Source: Mustelus asterias
Taxonomy: Eukaryota
DNA length: 64,000 nucleotides
Direction of reading: 5' to 3'
NCBI RefSeq assembly: GCF_964213995.1
Contig: NW_027590119.1
Span: 2,852,001-2,916,000 of the forward strand
This document shows positions 40,946 to 64,000 of the stretch, in pieces (position 1 is the first letter of the stretch; each line of letters opens with the position of its first letter). The translations under genes and the position numbers were made by a program. A model generated the notes under the pieces. The model saw only the letters and a program-made list of their open reading frames with translations, ran no database searches and was not told where the DNA came from.

Positions 40946-41199
40946 CAGGTTCACACCCAGGGGTCACTGAGAATGATCAAAATAAGATCACCCAAAAAAC
41001 TACCAACAGGAAACTTCAGCTGAACACATCACTCATTCTTAAATGGTCAGTCAGGGCTCTGTTGCTGCTCAGCTTCTCTCTGTTCTGTTTCTAATGGTTA
41101 AAGGCTGATAGGAGTGAGGTTTATTTAAAAGGATAGTGTATGGGAAGCACACAACAAAACTGAGAATTTTTGGATCCACACTGCAGCTCCTTCTCTATC

Positions 41200-44100
41200 T
41201 GGGAATCAAATTGTTGTCTAATTGTCCCAGCAGTTAACAGGCTCCTTTGAACGTCTCCAGCTGCTACTTTGATGCAGACTTCAACCAATTTATTTTAAGC
41301 CAGTTTCTGTTCAATAAACCAGGACTGACACACACACACATTAAAATGTTTTAGACTTTTTTGCATTTTTAGTCTGGAAACCTAAACCTGCCGTTTCACT
41401 CTCAGTCAGGAATAGATCCCAGTTTTACACCAATCTTTGACAGCACGTTTCCAGCATTCACCATTGTTCTTCCTAACTCTAAACACAGTTGTAAAAGAGC
41501 TTCTGTTCCGTGTCTCGGAGCTCGGAACCATGGAAAAGAACGACTGGGACACATTTCTCACACACCTCAGGATTCACCCACACGGGGACTTTGCTGTCAG
41601 TGAAAAGTGACGAAAAAGACCAAAGTGCTGTTTGTCCCTCTCAGCGAGACCCTGAAGGACTGGGTCAAGAATGAAGTTCTGTTCCTACTGTGTGACCCTC
41701 CCTCAGATTGCCCTTTCTGAGCTCCAGCCTGGTGACGTTAAACACTCAAATGAAAAAGACAAAAATCTACAACAATGATTCAATCAAATGTCTATTTCAC
41801 ATTTATTCAGAATATCAAACCTCAACAGAAGAAAAAAGTCAGAGTGAAGATGATTCAGACCTGGATATGATTAACAGCATCGATAAGTGTAGAATCCAAA
41901 CCTTGCAGTCGTTTGTGAACTCGCCGGTGTGTTAGCAGGTGGGATGACTGAACAAATCCCTTTCCACAGACATTACAGGTGAACGGCCTCTCCCCAGTGT
42001 GAACTCGCTGGTGTTTCAGAAGATAAGAGAAATGAGAAAATCCCTTCCCACAGACAGAGCAGGTAAATGGCCTCTCCCCACTGTGAACTCTCTGATGTGT
42101 CAGCAGGTTGGATGACTGACTGAATCCCTTCCCACACATGGAGCAGGTGAACGGCCTCTCCCCAGTGTGAACTCGCTGGTGATTCAATAGGTTGGATGAA
42201 CGAGTGAATCCCTTCCCACATACGGAGCAAGTGAATGGCCTCTCCTCACTGTGAACCTGCTGCTGTGTCAGAAGGTTGTATGAACGGGTGAATCCCTTCC
42301 CACATTCAGAGCAGGTGAACGGTCGATCCCCTGTGTGGAGTTGCTGGTGTATCAGAAGGTTGGATGAATTAATGAATCCCTTCCCACAGTCTGAGCAGGT
42401 GAAGGGCCTCTCCCTAGTGTGAATTCTCTGGTGGTTCAATAGGGCAGATGGACGGCTGAATCCCTTCCCACACACACAGCAGGTGAATGGCCTCTCCCCA
42501 GTGTGAGTATATTGGTGCGTCAGCAGATCTTTTTTATTTTTAAAGCTCTTCTCACAGTGGGAACAATTAAAAAGTTTGTTATCAGAGTGAACAAGTTGAT
42601 GTGTCTGCAAGTGGGATGACTGAATGAATCCTTTCCCACACACACAGCAGGTGAACGGTCTCTCCCCAGTGTGAATACGTTGGTGCGTCAGCAGATCTTT
42701 TTTGCATTTAAAACTCTTCCCACAGTCAGAACATGGAGACAGTCTCTCATCAGTGTGAACAAGTTGGTGTGTCACAATGTGGGATGAGCGAGTGAATCCC
42801 TTCCCACACACAGGGCAGGTGAACGGCCTCTCCCCAGTGTGAACCCGTTGGTGAGTCAGAAGGTTGTATGAATGGGTGAATCCCTTCCCACAAACAGAGC
42901 AGGTGAACGGTCTCTCCCCAGTGTGACTGCGCTGATGAACTTCCAGTTGTGATGGGAAACTGATTCCTTTCCCACAATCCACACATTTCCACTGTTTCTC
43001 CATGGTGCTGGTGCCCTTGTGTTTCTCCAGGTTGGATGATCAGTTCAAGCCTCATCCACACACACAACATACACGTAGTTTCACCCTGCTGTGAACTGTG
43101 ATTTTTTTTCAGGCTGTGTAACTGGTTAAAGCTCTTTCCACAGTCGGTTCACTGGAACACTCTCACTCGGGTGTGTGTTTGTCCTGCTGCTTTTCTGGTC
43201 ACACTGATGTTTAATTTCTTTGCCCACAGGCAGAACAGACAAATATTGCTCCTTCCATATTCAAAGACCGATCATATTCAGCTCCGAAGGAACTGAATGA
43301 CTTTGTCAGATGTGATGTTCGGTTTGAGTTTTCTGTCTGCCATTCCTTCACTTTGAATATCCTGTAAAAACAGTTTAGAAAAGTCATCACTGTCAGAACA
43401 GGATAGAAACTCTGAACAATTCTAGTCTTTCTGGAACATTTTTTCCTTTCTTGTTCCCCCAAATCTGTAAATCTCCGTCCCACACACTCTCCCTCCTCCT
43501 TGGGCTGAAATCCAAACCCATCTCACCATTTCTTTCCTCCACTCCCAGTTTTCTCCCTCCCTCTCCTCTGTCTGGGTTCAGTTCTCCAGCTCCTGTCTGT
43601 AGACTGACAATAAAACCAATGGGTCTTATTGGGGGTGTTGGGGCCTCCAGCGGGTGTTTGTGAATCCTCCCCGCCCACCTCCCAGGGTTTCCTTCCTTCC
43701 CAGAGATCAGAGTCCTCATTGATTTGAGGCCAAAGTGTAACCTCTTATTTATTGTCCCCCTCCCCCATCCTCTGATGTGAACCATCCTCCAGTGGCTGAG
43801 CCAGGATGGGGCCGTTAACCTGGGCCTGTTCCCGGGAGGGAGGGAGGGAGAAGCCCCGCAGCTGCAAACCAGGGAGCTGACAATGATTCTGAAGGGTTTG
43901 CGGATCCACAAAGTGTTTCCAAATCCTCCCAGCCACCGCCTAACGCTGACTCCGCTTCTCCGGGACAAACAAGCGCCAAGGACAGCAATGACACTGCGCA
44001 TGCTCCACATCACAATGCCCGGGGACTGATTGACGGCAGCTCCGGACCAATAGGAAGAGGGGGCGGGACTGGAGGACCGAGCGGGAGCGGCTGGTCCTCC

Positions 44101-44244
44101 AACCAATCGGAGTGAATGAGGGGCGGGGCCTGAAGCATGCGCAGTGCGGGTAATGGCGACGGACGGACGGTTTTAACTCGGTAGCGAGATCAATACGAGG
44201 TAGAGGGCGGCGTGCGAGGAATGATAAATGTGGCGGGTGGGTGG
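41200..44244. repeat. Segmental duplication copy A (ZNF unit 6 with 3' UTR, intron and promoter); copy B at 60880-63746
   Basis: Collinear from TGGGAATCAAATTGTTGTCTAATTG to AATGTGGCGGGTGGGTGG. Confidence 0.95.
41855..43003 (-). CDS. C2H2 zinc-finger protein, 13 fingers (9th lacks first His) (unit 6)
   Basis: 382-aa ORF starting MEKQWKC. Confidence 0.92.
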
Positions 44245-56805: not shown

Positions 56806-56875
56806 TTATAAGATGTACAGGTTAGGTTGATTGGCCATGCTCAATTGCCACTTAGTGTCCCAGGATGTGTGGGTT

Positions 56876-57072
56876 GGGGGGGCAATGCTCGGGGGGGGGC
56901 AATGCTCGGGGGGGGGGCAATGCCCGGGGGGGGCAAAGCCCGGGGGGGGCAAAGCCCGGGGGGGGGGGGGGCAAAGCCCGGGGGGGGGCAAAGCCCGGGG
57001 GGGGGGGCAAAGCCCGGGGGGGGGGGGGCAAAGCCCAGGGGGGGGGGCAAAGCCCAGGGGGGGGGGGGAGGG
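56876..57072 (+). repeat. G-rich tandem repeat (Gn-CAAAGCCC / Gn-CAATGCTC), G-quadruplex-like
   Basis: About 11 G runs of 7-14 nt separated by 8-nt spacers. Confidence 0.9.
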
Positions 57073-57074
57073 AC

Positions 57075-58168
57075 AGAGAGATAGTAAAAGTTTTTACAAA
57101 TATATAAAAAGGAAAAGAGTAGCTAAAGTAAATGTTGGACCCTTAGTAGATGAGAAGGGGGATTTAATAATGGGAAACGAGGAAATGGCTGAGGCCTTAA
57201 ACAAGTTTTTTGTATCAGTCTTCACGGTAGAGGACACAAATAGCTTACCGAAAATTGACGGTCATGGGACTGTAGGGGATGAGGTCCTTAAAATGATTAC
57301 TATTACTAAAGAGGTAGTGCTTGGGAGGCTAATGGGACTAAAGGTAGACAAGTCCCCGGGCCCGGATGGAATGCATCCCAGGGTACTGAAAGAAATGGCA
57401 GAAGTAATAGAGGATGCGTTGGTTGTAATTTATCAAAATACGCTGGACTCTGGGGAAGTGCCGGCTGATTGGAAAACAGCTAATGTGACGCCACTGTTTA
57501 AAAAAGGAGGTAGACAAAAGGCGGGTAACTACAGGCCGGTTAGCTTAACGTCCGTAGTTGGGAAATTGCTGGAATTCATCATTAAGGAAGAAATAGCAGG
57601 ACACCTGGAAAAAAATGGTTTGATCAAGCAGACGCAGCATGGATTCATGAAGGGAAAGTCGTGTTTGACAAATTTACTGGATTTTTATGTTGATGTAACG
57701 AGTGCGGTTGACAGAGGGGAACCAGTGGATGTGGTGTTTTTGGATTTCCAGAAGGCGTTCGATAAGGTGCCTCACAAAAGGTTGCTGCAGAAAATCAGGG
57801 TGCACGGAGTTAGGGGTAAAGTGTTAGCGTGGATTGGGGATTGGCTATCTAACAGGAAGCAGAGAGTTGGAATAAATGGGTGCTTTTCTGGTTGGCAGTT
57901 GGTGACTAGTGGCGTGCCACAGGGATTGGTGCTGGGGCCTCAAGTATTTACCATATGCATAGACGATCTGGAGGAGGGGACCGAGTGTTGGGTAACAAAG
58001 TTTGCGGATGACACAAAGATGAGTGGGAAAGTGAATTGCGTGGAGGATGCGGTAAGTCTGCAGAGAGATTTGGATAGGCTAAGTGAGTGGGCGAGGATCT
58101 GGCAGATGGAGTATAGCGTTGGTAAGTGTGAGCTTATCCACTTTGGAAGGAATAATAGTAAAATGGAA
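57075..58168 (+). mobile_element. CR1 RT fragment, truncated at both ends
   Basis: Uninterrupted RT motifs (KSPGPDG, NYRPVSLTS, DFQKAFD, SGVPQG, KFADD). Stops abruptly after HFGRNNSKME. Confidence 0.93.
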
Positions 58169-58170
58169 GC

Positions 58171-58192: not shown

Positions 58193-58366
58193 CACTTCTC
58201 CCAGTCTCAGCATTGCAGAGTGTTTAAACAAGAATGGCACATTCAGCACCATGGAATGAGAACATTCGGACTAACTCTTCGTTATACAATTGTTCTGTTT
58301 GTATTAACAGTTCACAATCCAGGTCACAGATCTGATTCAGTGAGAGGAGGTGAGAGTGCCTTTGCA

Positions 58367-58405
58367 GGTTTTTGTACGGGCTCACTGCGCCTCTGTAGCA
58401 GTGTG
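58367..58405 (-). other. Recombination signal sequence, 23-bp spacer
   Basis: Minus strand CACACTG (58405-58399), 23 nt, ACAAAAACC (58375-58367; consensus nonamer). Confidence 0.95.
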
Positions 58406-58843
58406 GGGCTCAGCGCACAGTGATACACGGCAGAGTCAGAGACATGGACCCCAGTGATATTTAAAGGAACTGTTTTCTTGTCCTTGTCCAAATCAGCAGA
58501 AAACCGGTCAGGGAAATCTGGAGACTTTTCTCCGCCCCCCGTGCTATATTTCTGCAGTAAATATCTCGGAGCTTCCCCGGGATACTGGATGTACCAGAAG
58601 AGATTTGGAAAAGCATCCGTTGTTGTGTAATTACAATTCACTATTACGTTCAATCCTTCCTGAACCGTTAATTCAGCCGGGTCCTGGGAAACTGAATCTT
58701 GGCCATTGATTCCTGCAACAAAATGTAGAATGTGTGAGAAATCTGTGAACAAATATAACCCATGAAACACACACTGAGGATCTGAGCTCAGACTCACCGG
58801 GCAGCGTGGTCATTGTTATCAGTAAAGCACACAGGAGATACAT
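58406..58843 (-). CDS. T-cell receptor alpha/delta-type variable gene segment (germline, unrearranged)
   Basis: Leader exon 58843-58798 (MYLLCALLITMTTLP), GTGAGT..TTGCAG intron 58797-58713, V exon 58712-58406: DSVSQ..VNCNY..LFWYIQYPGEAPRYLL..RFSA..LNIT..VSDSAVYHCALSP. No stops. Confidence 0.93.
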
Positions 58844-58894
58844 GGTTCCTGATTGGACAGTAAGCAGCGACAATGTTTACAATAAGTTGCTGCC

Positions 58895-59007
58895 TCTAGT
58901 CTTATATCACAGAGTGAACTCAGATCAGAAGCAGCTTCAAGTATTCAGAAACAGGGAGGCGTTTCTCAGTGCTGCGATTGGCTCATCTCCCTGAGCTGAC
59001 GTCAGCT
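58895..59007 (-). promoter_or_regulatory. V-segment promoter: TATA-like, CCAAT and palindromic CRE
   Basis: GATATAAG at about 58905 (minus), CCAAT at about 58979 (minus), AGCTGACGTCAGCT at 58994-59007. Confidence 0.6.
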
Positions 59008-59014
59008 GCGAATC

Positions 59015-59333
59015 ATAAAATCCCTGCAGTGCAGAAGGAGGCCATTCGCCCCATCGAGTCTATACCGGTCACAATACCACCCAGGCTCCACTCCCGCAAC
59101 TCCATGTATTTACCCTGCGTATCCCCTGACGCTCGGGTCAATTTAGCATGGCCAATCAACCTAACCTGCACATCTTTGGACTGTGGGAGGAAACAGGAGA
59201 ACCCGAAGGGGACCCACGTAGACACTGGGAGAACATGCAAACTCAGACAGAAAGTGATCCGAAGCCGGAATTGAACCCGGGTCCCTGACACTGTGAGACA
59301 GCAGCGCTGACCATTGTGGCATCATGCCGCCCC
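59015..59333 (-). mobile_element. HE1-like V-SINE
   Basis: Reverse-complement head, core and tail. Confidence 0.85.
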
Positions 59334-59559
59334 GTAACCAGTGAACCAATCACTGTTAGTTAATGATTTAATATAGCTGGCACTTTCCAATCACATTCCT
59401 TCCCTGGCCGTAAACTTATTTCTAAAGTCTTTGCTCTCTCTCTGCTCTCTCCCACATCATCACTTATTCTGTCTCATTAACTGGTTAACTCGCTTTCCTC
59501 AGAACTCAGTCCATCAATCTTTCTTAAGGCAGATCCTTTTTTCTAATTTAATCATTTAT

Positions 59560-59862
59560 GGGTGACACGGTGGCGCAGTGGTTCGCATTGTTGCCTCACA
59601 GCCCCAGGGACACGGGTTCGATTCCAGCCTCGGGTCACTGTCTCTGTGGAGTTTGCACTTTCTCACCGTGTCTGCGTGGGTTTCCTCAGGTGCTCCAGTT
59701 TCCCTCCACATTCCTAAACTGTGCAGGTTTGCTGGATTGGCCACGCAAAATTACCCTAAGTGTCAGGGGATAGCAGGGTAAATATGTGGGTTACGGGGAT
59801 AGGGCCTGGGTGGGATTGTTGTCGGGACAGGCTCCATCCTGCATTGTCGGGATTCAATGATT
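59560..59862 (+). mobile_element. HE1-like V-SINE
   Basis: Head, core and partial tail. Confidence 0.85.
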
Positions 59863-59989
59863 CAGCAGCCTAACGTACAGGGATTAATGAGTAGCATCCA
59901 GGACTCAACATAATTAATAGTTAGTGCTGTAAGTATACCGGGGATAAGTAGTCACTCAACTCTGCACCAGGAAATATTTCACGGACTCA

Positions 59990-60440
59990 TAACATAGAAA
60001 CTAGAAGCAGGAGCCTTCTCCGCCATTCATCGTAATCATAGCTGATCATGGAATTCAATATCCTGATCCTCCTTCCCCCTCGACCCCTTTAGCCCCAAGA
60101 GCTATATCAAATTTCTTCTTGAAATCAGACAACGTTTTGGCCTCAACTACATTCGGTGGTATTGAATTCCATACATTCAACACTCTCTGGATGAAGGAAT
60201 TTCCCTTCACCTCAGTTTTTCCCTTATCTTCAAAAGATGACCCATGGTTCTGGATTCCACCATTGGGAACAGTCTTCTGGATCTACCCTGTCGAACCCTG
60301 TTAGAATTTTATAAGTTTCTATGAGACCCCCTCTCACTATTCGAAACCGCAGTGAATATAATCCTAACGGATTTAATCTCTCCTCATATGACAGAGCTGC
60401 CATCCCAGGAATCAGCATAGTAAATCTTCACTGTACCCCT
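59990..60440 (-). mobile_element. CR1 3' fragment
   Basis: LIPGMAALSYEERLNPLGLYSL..GGLIETYKIL. Confidence 0.85.
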
Positions 60441-60832
60441 CTATTCCCCAAATAGAAAAGCTCTGATTTCAATCAGTTATTATTTCTGCTCCACGGACTT
60501 GAAAATGGAACAATTCTGAGGCTGCATTTGATAATAGATCACTTTTAAAATGTGTCGCCGGGCAGATAGGCACCGAATCCAGAATTTTTCTAAGTACAGA
60601 TTAAGGAAGTTATTCACCCGGGGTAATCTGCAGATTTTGTGCGGATGGGATCGGAGAATGGTTGGATTTGATCCGGGAATAATAGGATGGCAAATGTGAC
60701 ATTTCACAACACTGACAATGGCTGAGCTCAGTGGGGGAATATTATTCAGCTGGGGCTGTATTGTGGCCTTCATTTCCTGCGCATTTTCGTTGAGATCCGA
60801 CTCTTTTTCTCTGACCCTGAAACGTCTGCGTC

Positions 60833-60881
60833 ACTTTTTGTATGAGGCCCGCGGGAGCCTCATTCACTGTGGGTCTCAGTG
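60833..60881 (-). other. Orphan 23-RSS with only 8-10 nt of V coding end
   Basis: Minus strand (CA)CTGAGACC, then CACAGTG (60871-60865), 23 nt, ACAAAAAGT (60841-60833). Compare CTGAGCCC|CACACTG in the intact V. Confidence 0.8.
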
Positions 60882-61517
60882 GGAATCAAATTGTTGTCTA
60901 ATTGTCCCAGCAGATAACAGGTTCCTTTGAACTCTCCAGCTGCTACTTTAATGCAGACTTTAACCAATTTATTTTGAGCTGGTTTCTGTTCAATAAACTG
61001 GCACTGACACACAAACACATTAAAATATTTTAGACTTTTCTGCATTTTCAGTCTGGAAATCTAATCCTGCCATTTCACTCTCAGTCAGGAACAGATCCCA
61101 GTTTTGCACCAATCTCTGATTTAGCAGCATGCTTCCAGCATTCACTGTTGTTCTTCCTGACTCTAAACACAGTTGTAAAGGAACTTCTGTTCCTGGTCTA
61201 GGAGCGCTGAAACATAGAAGGGAGTGACTGAGATTCTTGCACATCTCAGGATTAAACCACACGGGTACTTTGCTGTCGTGAAGAGAGACGAGGAAGAGCA
61301 AAGTGCTGTTTGTCCCTCTGTGACCCTGAAGGACTGCGTCCTGTTTGCCATATGATCCACCCCCGATTGTCTTTTCTGAGCTCCAGCCTGGTGATGTTAA
61401 ACAGTCAGGTGGGAAAGACAAAAATCTACAACAATTTTAAAAAACAAAGCTGGTCTATTTCATATTTATTCAGAATATTAAACCTCAACGGATGAAGACT
61501 GTCAGAGTGAACACGAT

Positions 61518-62498
61518 TCAGTCCTGGATATGATTAACAGCATCATTAAGAGTAGAATCCAAACCTTGCAGTCGTTTGTGAACTCGCTGGTGTGTTAGCA
61601 GGTGGGATGACTGAATAAATCCCTTTCCACAGACATTACAGGTGAACGGCCTCTCCCCAGTGTGAACTCGCTGGTGTTTCAGAAGATAAGATAAATGAGA
61701 AAATCCCTTCCCACAGACAGAGCAGGTAAGTGGCCTCTCCGCACTGTGAACTTTCTGGTGTGTCAGCAGGTTGGATGACTGACTGAATCCCTTCCCACAC
61801 ACAGAGCAGGTGAACGGCCTCTCCCCAGTGTGAACTCGCTGGTGATTCAATAAGTTGGATGAACGAGTGAATCCCTTCCCACAGTCTGAGCAGGTGAAGG
61901 GCCTCTCCCCAGTGTGAATTCTCTGGTGGTTCAATAGGGCAGATGGACGGCTGAATCCCTTCCCACACACACAGCAGGTGAATGGCCTCTCCCCAGTGTG
62001 AGCATATTGGTGCGTTAGCAGATCCTTTTTATTTTTAAAGCTCTTCGCACAGTGGGAACAATTAAAAAGTTTGTTATCAGAGTGAACAAGTTGATGTGTC
62101 TGCAAGTGGGATGACTGAATGAATCCTTTCCCACACACAGAGCAGGTGAACGGTCTCTCCCCAGTGTGAATTCGTTGGTGTGTCAGCAGATCCTTTTTGC
62201 ATTTAAAACTCTTCTCACAGTCAGAACATGTAAACATTCTCTCATCAGTGTGAACAAGTTGGTGTGTCACAATGTGGGATGAGCGAGTGAATCCCTTCCC
62301 ACACACAGGGCAGGTGAACGGCCTCTCCCCAGTGTGAACCCGTTGGTGTGTCAGAAGGTTGTATGAATGGGTGAATCCCTTCCCACAGACGGAGCAGGTG
62401 AACGGTCTCTCCCCAGTGTGACTGCGCCGATGAACTTCCAGTTGTGATGGGAAACCGAATCCCTTCCCACAATCCACACATTTCCACGGTTTCTCCAT
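61518..62498 (-). CDS. C2H2 zinc-finger protein, 11 fingers (unit 9), close paralog of unit 6
   Basis: 326-aa ORF, shorter than unit 6 by exactly 56 aa (two fingers). Confidence 0.92.
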
Positions 62499-63349
62499 GG
62501 TGCGGGTGTCCTTGTGTTTCTCCAGGTTGGATGATCAGTTCAAGCCTCATCCACACACACAACATACACGTAGTTTCACCCTGCTGTGAACTGTGATGTT
62601 TTTTCAGGCTGTGTAACTGGTTAAAGCTCTTTCCACAGTCGGTTCACTGGAACACTCTCACTCGGGTGTGTGTTTGTCTCGATGCTTTTCCGGTCACACT
62701 GATGTTTAATTTCTTTGCCCACAGGCAGAACAGACAAATATTTCTCTTTCTATATTCAAAGACCAATGATATTCAGCTCCGAAGGAACTGAATGACTTTG
62801 TCAGATGTGATGTCCGGTTTGAATTTTCTGTCTGCCAATCTTTCACTTCCAATATCCTGTAAAAACAGTTTAGAAAAGTCATCACTGTCAGAACACGATA
62901 GAAACTCTGAACAGACAATTCTAGTTCGTCTGGAACATTTTTTCCTCTCTTGTTCCCCCAAATCTGTAAATCTCCGTCCCACACACTCTCCCTCCTCCCT
63001 GGGCTGAAATCCAAATCCATCTCACCATTTCTTTCCTCCACTCCCAGTTTTCTCCCTCCCTCTCCTCTGTCTGGGTTCAGTTCTCCAGCTCCTGTCTGCA
63101 GACTGACAATAAAACCAATGGGTCTTATTGGGGGTGTTGGGGCCTCCAGCGGGTGTTTGTGAATCCTCCCCGCCCACCTCCCAGGGTTTCCTTCCTTCCC
63201 AGAGATCAGAGTCCTCATTGATTTGAGGCCAAAGTGTAACCTCTTATTTATTGTCCCCCTCCCCCATCCTCTGATGTGAACCATCCTCCAGTGGCTGAGC
63301 CAGGATGGGGCCGTTAACCTGGGCCTGTTCCCGGGAGGGAGGGAGGGAG

Positions 63350-63746
63350 AAGCCCCGCAGCTGCAAACCAGGGAGCTGACAATGATTCTGAAGGGTTTGC
63401 GGATCCACAAAGTGTTTCCAAATCCTCCCAGCCACCGCCTAACGCTGACTCCGCTTCTCCGGGACAAACAAGCGCCAAGGACAGCAATGACACTGCGCAT
63501 GCTCCACATCACAATGCCCGGGAGCTGATTGACGCCAGCTCCGGACCAATAGGAAGAGGGGGCGGGACTGGAGGACCGAGCGGGAGCGGCTGGTCCTCCA
63601 ACCAATCGGAGTGAATGAGGGGCGGGACCTGAAGCATGCGCAGTGCGGGTAATGGCGGCGGCGGACGGACGGTTTCAACTTGGAAGCGAGAACAATACAA
63701 GGTAGAGGGCGGCGCGCGGGGAATGATAAATGTGGCGGGTGGGTGG
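63350..63746. promoter_or_regulatory. CpG-island promoter of unit 9
   Basis: Near-identical to 43850-44244. Confidence 0.7.
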
Positions 63747-64000
63747 CCTTCAAAAAGAATACGGCCCGGCCGGACATCTTAGAGGCCGCGACAATGGCTG
63801 AGGGGCCGACAACCCCAGCCATTGCCTTGACACAGGCCTCGATGGACATGTCGGGGTGGGCGTAGCACTTAACCCCGAGCTGCCGCGTGAGCAACGAAAA
63901 AGGTGGCAGGGCCTTGGGAGCGGCGGGGGCTCTGGTAGCCGCCACGCCCGCATAGGTGGGCCGAGAAGGCTCTGCCACGGCAGGGCGTATAAGAGGAGGG
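63747..64000 (-). mobile_element. Tx1-clade LINE ORF1 N-terminal fragment (runs off the window)
   Basis: TYAGVAA..LTRQLGVKC..MSIEACVKAMAGVVGPSAIVAASKMSGRAVFFLK, typical of the Tx1 ORF1 start. Confidence 0.8.

Follow-up and report, generated by a model that had tools for sequence, protein, structure and literature searches.

Pattern matching across the 64-kb window, by which we mean the whole stretch of DNA analysed here, returned a single RSS, a 23-RSS at 60833-60871 on the minus strand, where 0.01 matches are expected by chance. It is composed of an uncut consensus heptamer, CACAGTG (60865..60871), a near-palindromic 23-nt spacer (60842..60864), for which a hairpin is predicted in the parent V, and the nonamer ACAAAAAGT (60833..60841), which agrees with the consensus at 7/9 positions. 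The heptamer abuts a V stub, CACTGAGACC (60872..60881, minus strand), which matches the 3'-terminal 10 nt of a V exon of the TCR alpha/delta type; eight of these are unique to the V and the other two are a CA common to the adjoining ZNF sequence. The same 10 nt are found unchanged in the intact V copies L014-L019, where they lie directly 3' of TACTGTG. Heptamer, 23-nt spacer and nonamer stand directly 3' of the parent V exon, as in an authentic V-type 23-RSS. A chance RSS is ruled out both by the low expectation and by intact V genes that carry the same 3' flank, and the proposal of an earlier note on this DNA, that the orphan RSS is real and derived from a V, is upheld.

On the other side of the stub lies a ZNF gene, copy B, with a truncated 3' UTR (60880..61517, minus strand) and a C2H2 open frame (61518..62534, minus strand; 338 aa from stop to stop, nine Pfam zf-C2H2 stretches). 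Homology to a second ZNF gene in the window, copy A (41120..44244, minus strand), which has a full 3' end with an AATAAA at 41120, begins at 60880 (= 41200), and the CA at this point is common to both sides, in agreement with the earlier note. Copy B had also been described as lacking the AATAAA of copy A, and hence as looking derived. It is derived, and the AATAAA of 41120 is missing, but hexamers are retained at 60968 (= 41289 in copy A) and at 61465. Copy A was rejected as the direct ZNF parent, being a more distant paralogue (about 83% identical over 1.4 kb, versus about 98% for L075, L087 and L095). An intact, TCR-alpha-like V of a second family, F2, is found nearby (58367..58813, minus strand; V-set E 1e-17), with a leader, a V exon and a 23-RSS at 58405-58367; the best solved relatives of 58813-58406 include TCR alpha chains. 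Exactly 10 nt separate its embedded CACTGTG from its RSS, a spacing that had been noted before. Just beyond this V, a long open frame on the plus strand (56831-58170) is a LINE reverse-transcriptase fragment, which we take to be CR1-like. No match to a 12-RSS pattern, indicative of J segments, was found in the window or in loci of at least 8 kb. At least 177 V ends of the TCR alpha/delta type are followed by an RSS heptamer (on C71, C87-C91 and many small contigs). These V ends, close to which no J segment was found, are dominated by two families that have been amplified among ZNF duplications.

The ZNF 3' UTR and the V stub meet at a junction, J1 (60880..60881, minus strand), where read contigs have loose ends at 60880 and 60881. 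The product reads GATTCC from the ZNF, the common CA, and CTGAGACC from the V, with nothing added. Across the break the ZNF parent reads GATTCC/CAGATA, and intact V genes of the TCR alpha/delta type that carry the same 3' flank read TACTGTG/CACTGAGACC-RSS (the slash marks the break). A search with 60430-60900 gave 190 candidates, of which 40 were scored; 13 span the full query and the others begin at query base 20 or 22. Seven non-joined copies of the V-side flank were opened, and each proved to be an intact V exon with YYCALR or YCALR at its end, reading TACTGTG/C(A/G)CTGAGACC-RSS as had been predicted. On the ZNF side, 92 copies have the final 27 nt of the UTR in common. Among the 30 that were inspected, 3 are joined and 27 run on with CAGA or CAAA toward a distal AATAAA, and the closest ZNF parents, L075, L087 and L095, lie on other contigs. 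The V-cluster-derived segment (58231..60881, minus strand) covers 2.65 kb, comprising the 3' flank of the lost V and the next V, and is 93.5-95.6% identical to the C420 and C232 loci; the V-side parents differ by 3.1-3.8% substitutions in the first 960 nt. The ZNF-parent-derived segment (60880..64000, minus strand) is 94.7-97.9% identical to the parent on C71, and the ZNF-side parents differ by 1.2-1.7% substitutions over 1.4 kb. J1 thus has two non-homologous parents, a short microhomology and the same junction in every copy, as is found in microhomology-mediated segmental-duplication junctions. It is an inherited two-parent junction at which the V was removed, the RSS kept and the ZNF 3' UTR shortened, and the block was later amplified. 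A simple local deletion from the ZNF parent to an F1-family V (F1 being the V family of the orphan RSS) was considered and rejected, as V and RSS are absent from the 20-30 kb downstream of all three ZNF parent loci.

J1 was found on 13 contigs within a segmental duplication, with 0-10 substitutions per 3.4 kb between copies. The copies carry common diagnostic alleles plus private substitutions, and J1 is one event, later multiplied to 13 copies. Eight copies, compared over a longer range, have 12-34 kb in common with the window contig at 97-99.6% identity. Three are identical over 3.4 kb, and haplotype duplicates may account for some of the copies. J1 is spanned, with zero differences, by a 98-nt contig of run X1 (60812-60909), which reaches 28 letters past the common CA, just short of the 31 letters that the rule applied asks for; X1 may be the source sample. 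Between 60500 and 61300, joined-form contigs of X1 have a depth of about 40, compared to 4.4 for an intact-V contig, and parent alleles are almost absent. This depth pattern would fit a candidate ZNF transcript running through the RSS. Among the contigs listed for runs X2-X7, none crosses J1 and those listed enter the intact V or the ZNF parent. Between 60587 and 60841, runs X2, X4 and X5, which bear the same organism label, have parent alleles only at several sites diagnostic of the joined family, and they hold 0.28-0.59 of the word content of this stretch, versus 0.96 for X1. The 13-copy J1 family may be polymorphic. At a loose end at 60877, run X3 contains an F1-family V in which 10 nt across the embedded heptamer are swapped for an F2-like V-end patch, a form that has no counterpart in the assembly census.

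The position of J1 in the middle of a ZNF 3' UTR bears on whether the ZNF cassette was inserted into the V as a mobile element or retrocopy, or whether J1 is an assembly chimera. Several other breaks in the F1 family do resemble insertions with target duplications. Against insertion, the about 21 kb that extend from J1 in the ZNF direction hold no remnant of the lost V, its 5' half included, the homology to the ZNF parent runs for at least 9.9 kb from the junction and past the window edge, and the mid-UTR break has no poly(A) tail. Against a chimera, the junction recurs on 13 contigs, among which private substitutions occur, and is crossed by the borderline contig from X1. Both versions are very improbable, and we regard them as largely refuted.

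Because the CA is common to both parents, the J1 break can be placed anywhere from -10 to -8 relative to the RSS, that is, at or just 3' of the heptamer embedded in the V end. The claim that the junction lies exactly at this cryptic heptamer therefore survives in a weaker form: J1 is compatible with a cut at -10, but the common CA equally allows -9 or -8. The embedded heptamer reads CACAGTA on the bottom strand and is accompanied by nonamer matches of 0-1/9 at a distance of 12 nt and of 4/9 at 23 nt. J1 has neither P nor N bases. None of the three closest parents has a CAC or GTG at 20 nt or less from the ZNF break, and hence neither an RSS nor a cryptic RSS was found at the partner site. J1 keeps 8-10 nt of coding flank, whereas RAG transposition of a signal end is expected to leave a heptamer-flush junction and a short target duplication; a duplication would show only where two ends exist, and J1 has one. 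Germline joints in sharks unite two segments with both RSSs excised; at J1 the RSS is kept and the partner is a ZNF UTR.

We performed a census of the F1 family, anchored on the heptamer and 11 spacer bases, which yielded 100 RSS copies. The V end is intact to -17 in 84 of these, 13 carry J1, two carry a second junction, J2, and one carries a third, J3. None of the 100 is a signal joint, and a V-to-V-stub replacement join, the expected RAG product, is absent from the 17 nt that precede each of them. When copies were anchored on the V instead, no V end joined to foreign DNA was found among 76; 60 of these coincide with copies on the RSS list and the other 16 retain a mutated RSS. A wider F1 pattern returned 96 intact copies, 16 known joined copies and no additional orphan; one further match, on C7, has neither nonamer nor V and was dropped as chance. 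V copies with a degenerated heptamer but intact spacer and flank were seen at L121-L124, L234-L236, L243 and L244. In the near-palindromic spacer, deletions of 11 nt and 7 nt were observed at L237 and L238 (C112:1105511, C138:290165) and at L148 (C182:202779).

J2 (L063/L178, C112:857499; L127/L179, C138:909460) breaks between -6 and -2. Its partner reads GGGAGA-A-CACAGTT and the product GGGAGA-GC-CACAGTG, with a 4-nt microhomology, GAGA, inside a longer imperfect match, and the CACAGTT of the partner begins 1 nt beyond the break. Two readings suit the sequence of J2, a hybrid joint and a crossover within a short imperfect match. J3 (L125, G000:C988:39988-40022) is present in a single copy and breaks at -1 or 0. 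Between its partner, ZNF-flank DNA ending in GAGAGTTCCTG, and the heptamer lies an insert of 5-6 nt, TCTCT(C), which matches the reverse complement of a nearby GAGAG. Of the junctions found, J3 is the most RAG-like. A fourth junction, J4 (L245, C2927:8197), was found among 56 copies anchored on the downstream flank, and breaks at +14 to +17, inside the RSS spacer. It has a 3-nt microhomology and its partner resembles a stretch of C988 that lies about 9 kb further downstream; J4 is probably a tandem-duplication join. The flanks of J4 and J3 are the same (0/533 differences), and the J4 partner holds an inverted 9-nt match to the J3 partner end. Judging from these matches, J3 and J4 may be the product of a single complex template-switching event.

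To place these junctions among other breaks of the family, upstream DNA of all 84 intact copies was compared, with breaks read off alignment ends and small indels ignored. From -11 to -700 this revealed eight more independent breaks, at about -40, -187, -307, -375, -448, -555, -614 and -693. Five of the eight resemble mobile-element insertions by eye. In the L049 group, of at least six copies, the V exon is cut at its start (about -307), and leader and promoter are gone. Of the 11 breaks upstream of the RSS, three lie within 11 nt of it, out of 701 nt (binomial p 6e-4; two of 10 and p 0.010 without J1), and an interval of 21 nt gave p 0.004 with J1 and 0.034 without; these p values refer to intervals picked post hoc and were computed before J4 was found. 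Breaks crowd at the F1 RSS border more than elsewhere in the V gene, and for this reason a role for RAG was kept open. They do not cluster at -10, contrary to what the earlier note had anticipated for orphan RSSs: of the four nearby joins, only J1 fits an untrimmed cut at -10, and one lies in the spacer. If 6-11 breaks fell at random, one or more of them would fit a cut at -10 with a probability of 2.5-10%. In family F2, all 70 V ends are intact to -15 and no orphan RSS was found (0/70), though the window copy has a perfect embedded CACTGTG. Of the small families, F3 gave no orphan match and F4 one, a point variant, with patterns that excluded one letter at -15 and would thus have missed about a quarter of orphans.

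These data bear directly on the suggestion that J1 is a germline RAG scar. Under this reading, RAG would have cut a germline V at the embedded CACAGTA, and the coding end, untrimmed or trimmed by at most 2 nt, would have been joined via CA to an independent break in the ZNF 3' UTR; J3, with its flush signal end, and J2, hybrid-like and next to CACAGTT, would be further germline RAG accidents. We consider this possible but rather doubtful. In its favour, germline RAG-like joining is documented in sharks (PMC2193156), J1 is compatible with exactly -10, breaks are crowded from 0 to -10, J3 is flush with the heptamer, and the J2 partner has its CACAGTT beside the break. The poor nonamer is no bar, since RAG cleaves cryptic sites of mouse VH genes, the equivalent TACTGTG among them, despite poor nonamers, at a level 30-50-fold below a physiological RSS (Davila et al. 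2007, PMC2150985); the 3' heptamer used in V replacement is likewise described without a conserved nonamer (PMC3526766). Nor are absent N bases an objection, as shark germline joints show little TdT activity (PMC2193156), and single RSSs can be broken by RAG (Kirkham et al. 2019, PMC6509286). In Arnal et al. 2010 (PMC2875030) some non-consensus heptamers release ends to alternative joining, but with changes at heptamer positions 6-7 the share of alternative over normal joining of coding ends did not rise; CACAGTA deviates from the consensus at position 7 only, which speaks for a break without RAG. Further evidence against RAG is that two rare events in one germ cell are required, together with the sparing of a consensus RSS 10 nt away, a far better substrate that is uncut. 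P bases, a partner RSS and a reciprocal product (0/76) are all missing, as are the replacement joins in F1 and orphan RSSs in F2, although a RAG joint may lack P and N bases and a reciprocal product may fail to be passed on. The GC retained at J2 is the V's own last two bases, making a RAG cut at 0 unnecessary, and known shark germline joins are RSS-to-RSS with the signals removed (PMC2193156). J1 has the look of a V-replacement footprint, but for want of a partner RSS and of recurrence at one position it was assigned to the duplication junctions, as one that carries an orphan RSS. The broader proposal, that germline RAG cuts orphan TCR V genes amid ZNF duplications (at the embedded heptamer in J1, at the true RSS in J3 and perhaps J2) and that the ends join non-immune DNA, seeding duplication blocks of which one now has 13 copies, is similarly doubtful.

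A break of another kind has been considered at the same place. WGCW is the AID hotspot rule, and an overlapping motif of this type, TGCA (-12 to -9), spans the J1 break, which could then have been end-joined to the ZNF UTR. AID-type hypermutation reportedly acts on TCR alpha of the nurse shark (PMC5931798). The motif is common, there is no sign of germline AID here, and J2-J4 lie off the motif; this origin seems most unlikely.

The reading we favour is that J1 probably arose by a single germline event of microhomology-mediated repair or replication template switching, without RAG, at a locally fragile V end. The event joined the ZNF 3' UTR via the common CA to the last 8-10 bases of the V and its RSS, and the joined block was then amplified to 13 copies in a segmental duplication. 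One such process covers J1, J2 and J4 and requires no sparing of the true RSS. J1 is a clean two-parent junction with a 2-nt microhomology; the GAGA of J2, the templated insert of J3 and the microhomology of J4 are marks of homology-guided repair, and J4 lies inside the spacer, where RAG does not cut. The V end and its hairpin-spacer RSS would be fragile enough to give several unrelated joins within about 25 nt. This fragility we only infer, since the predicted hairpin of V end and RSS is no more stable than shuffles (z -0.98). The repair pathway is likewise a matter of interpretation, and the J1 microhomology does not name the pathway, as at least 2 nt of microhomology occur by chance in 16% of joins. 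The match of J1 to the embedded heptamer would be a coincidence, because most V exons end in a Tyr-Cys coding sequence and TACTGTG is no more than that. What this reading leaves less well explained is that the break interval of J1 includes exactly -10, that breaks crowd beside the RSS, and that J3 and J2 have RAG-like ends; J4 could also be a resected signal end, and may not be independent of J3.

If J1 is an ordinary rearrangement, it documents the shuffling of TCR V segments with ZNF genes in a region that is young and rich in duplications. Since nearly all V exons end in an embedded heptamer, one break at such a site is weak proof of RAG. If J1 was made by RAG, the germline activity of RAG, so far canonical V-D-J pre-joining, would be widened to off-target joins that involve non-immune genes; J1 would then be a heritable counterpart of RAG-driven translocations, and RAG would contribute to inherited structural variation. 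The RAG question can be tested across shark genomes in the F1 family, which has about 100 RSS copies and in which four junctions have been mapped.

Among known systems, the germline-joined Ig genes of sharks come first. Lee et al. 2000 (PMC2193156) describe infrequent germline V-J joins in the nurse shark, including the NS4 light chain, with possible P bases, little TdT activity and fully excised signals. These resemble J1 in being inherited rearrangements at an antigen-receptor segment with little or no N addition. They differ, as described there, in being V-J coding joints of two RSS-flanked segments, whereas J1 has kept the RSS, lost the V and gained a non-immune partner without an RSS. V replacement at TACTGTG in mouse and human VH genes (PMC2150985, PMC3526766) has in common with J1 an embedded heptamer, a poor nonamer and a short footprint-like stub. 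It is a somatic process in which the stub receives the coding end of a V lying upstream, usually in a rearranged gene; J1 is germline, its V had its own RSS, and the incoming sequence is a ZNF UTR. Breaks at single or cryptic RSSs in lymphoid tumours are alike in that one end is RSS-like and the other is not, with short microhomology. They are somatic and RAG-dependent by experiment (PMC6509286, PMC2875030), whereas J1 is inherited and any dependence on RAG is hypothetical. Our literature search, in which most subscription papers were not included, returned no account of RAG-made joins with non-immune DNA being inherited, none of this ZNF and V mosaic, and nothing relevant on RAG1 expression in cartilaginous-fish gonads. 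Mosaic segmental duplications with microhomology junctions, and truncated V relics or orphons, form a general class. J1 resembles the junctions of such mosaics in having two parents, and the joins found here have 2-4-nt microhomology or a templated insert, with later amplification in large blocks. Nothing essential sets J1 apart from them; it is unusual only in its position next to an RSS.
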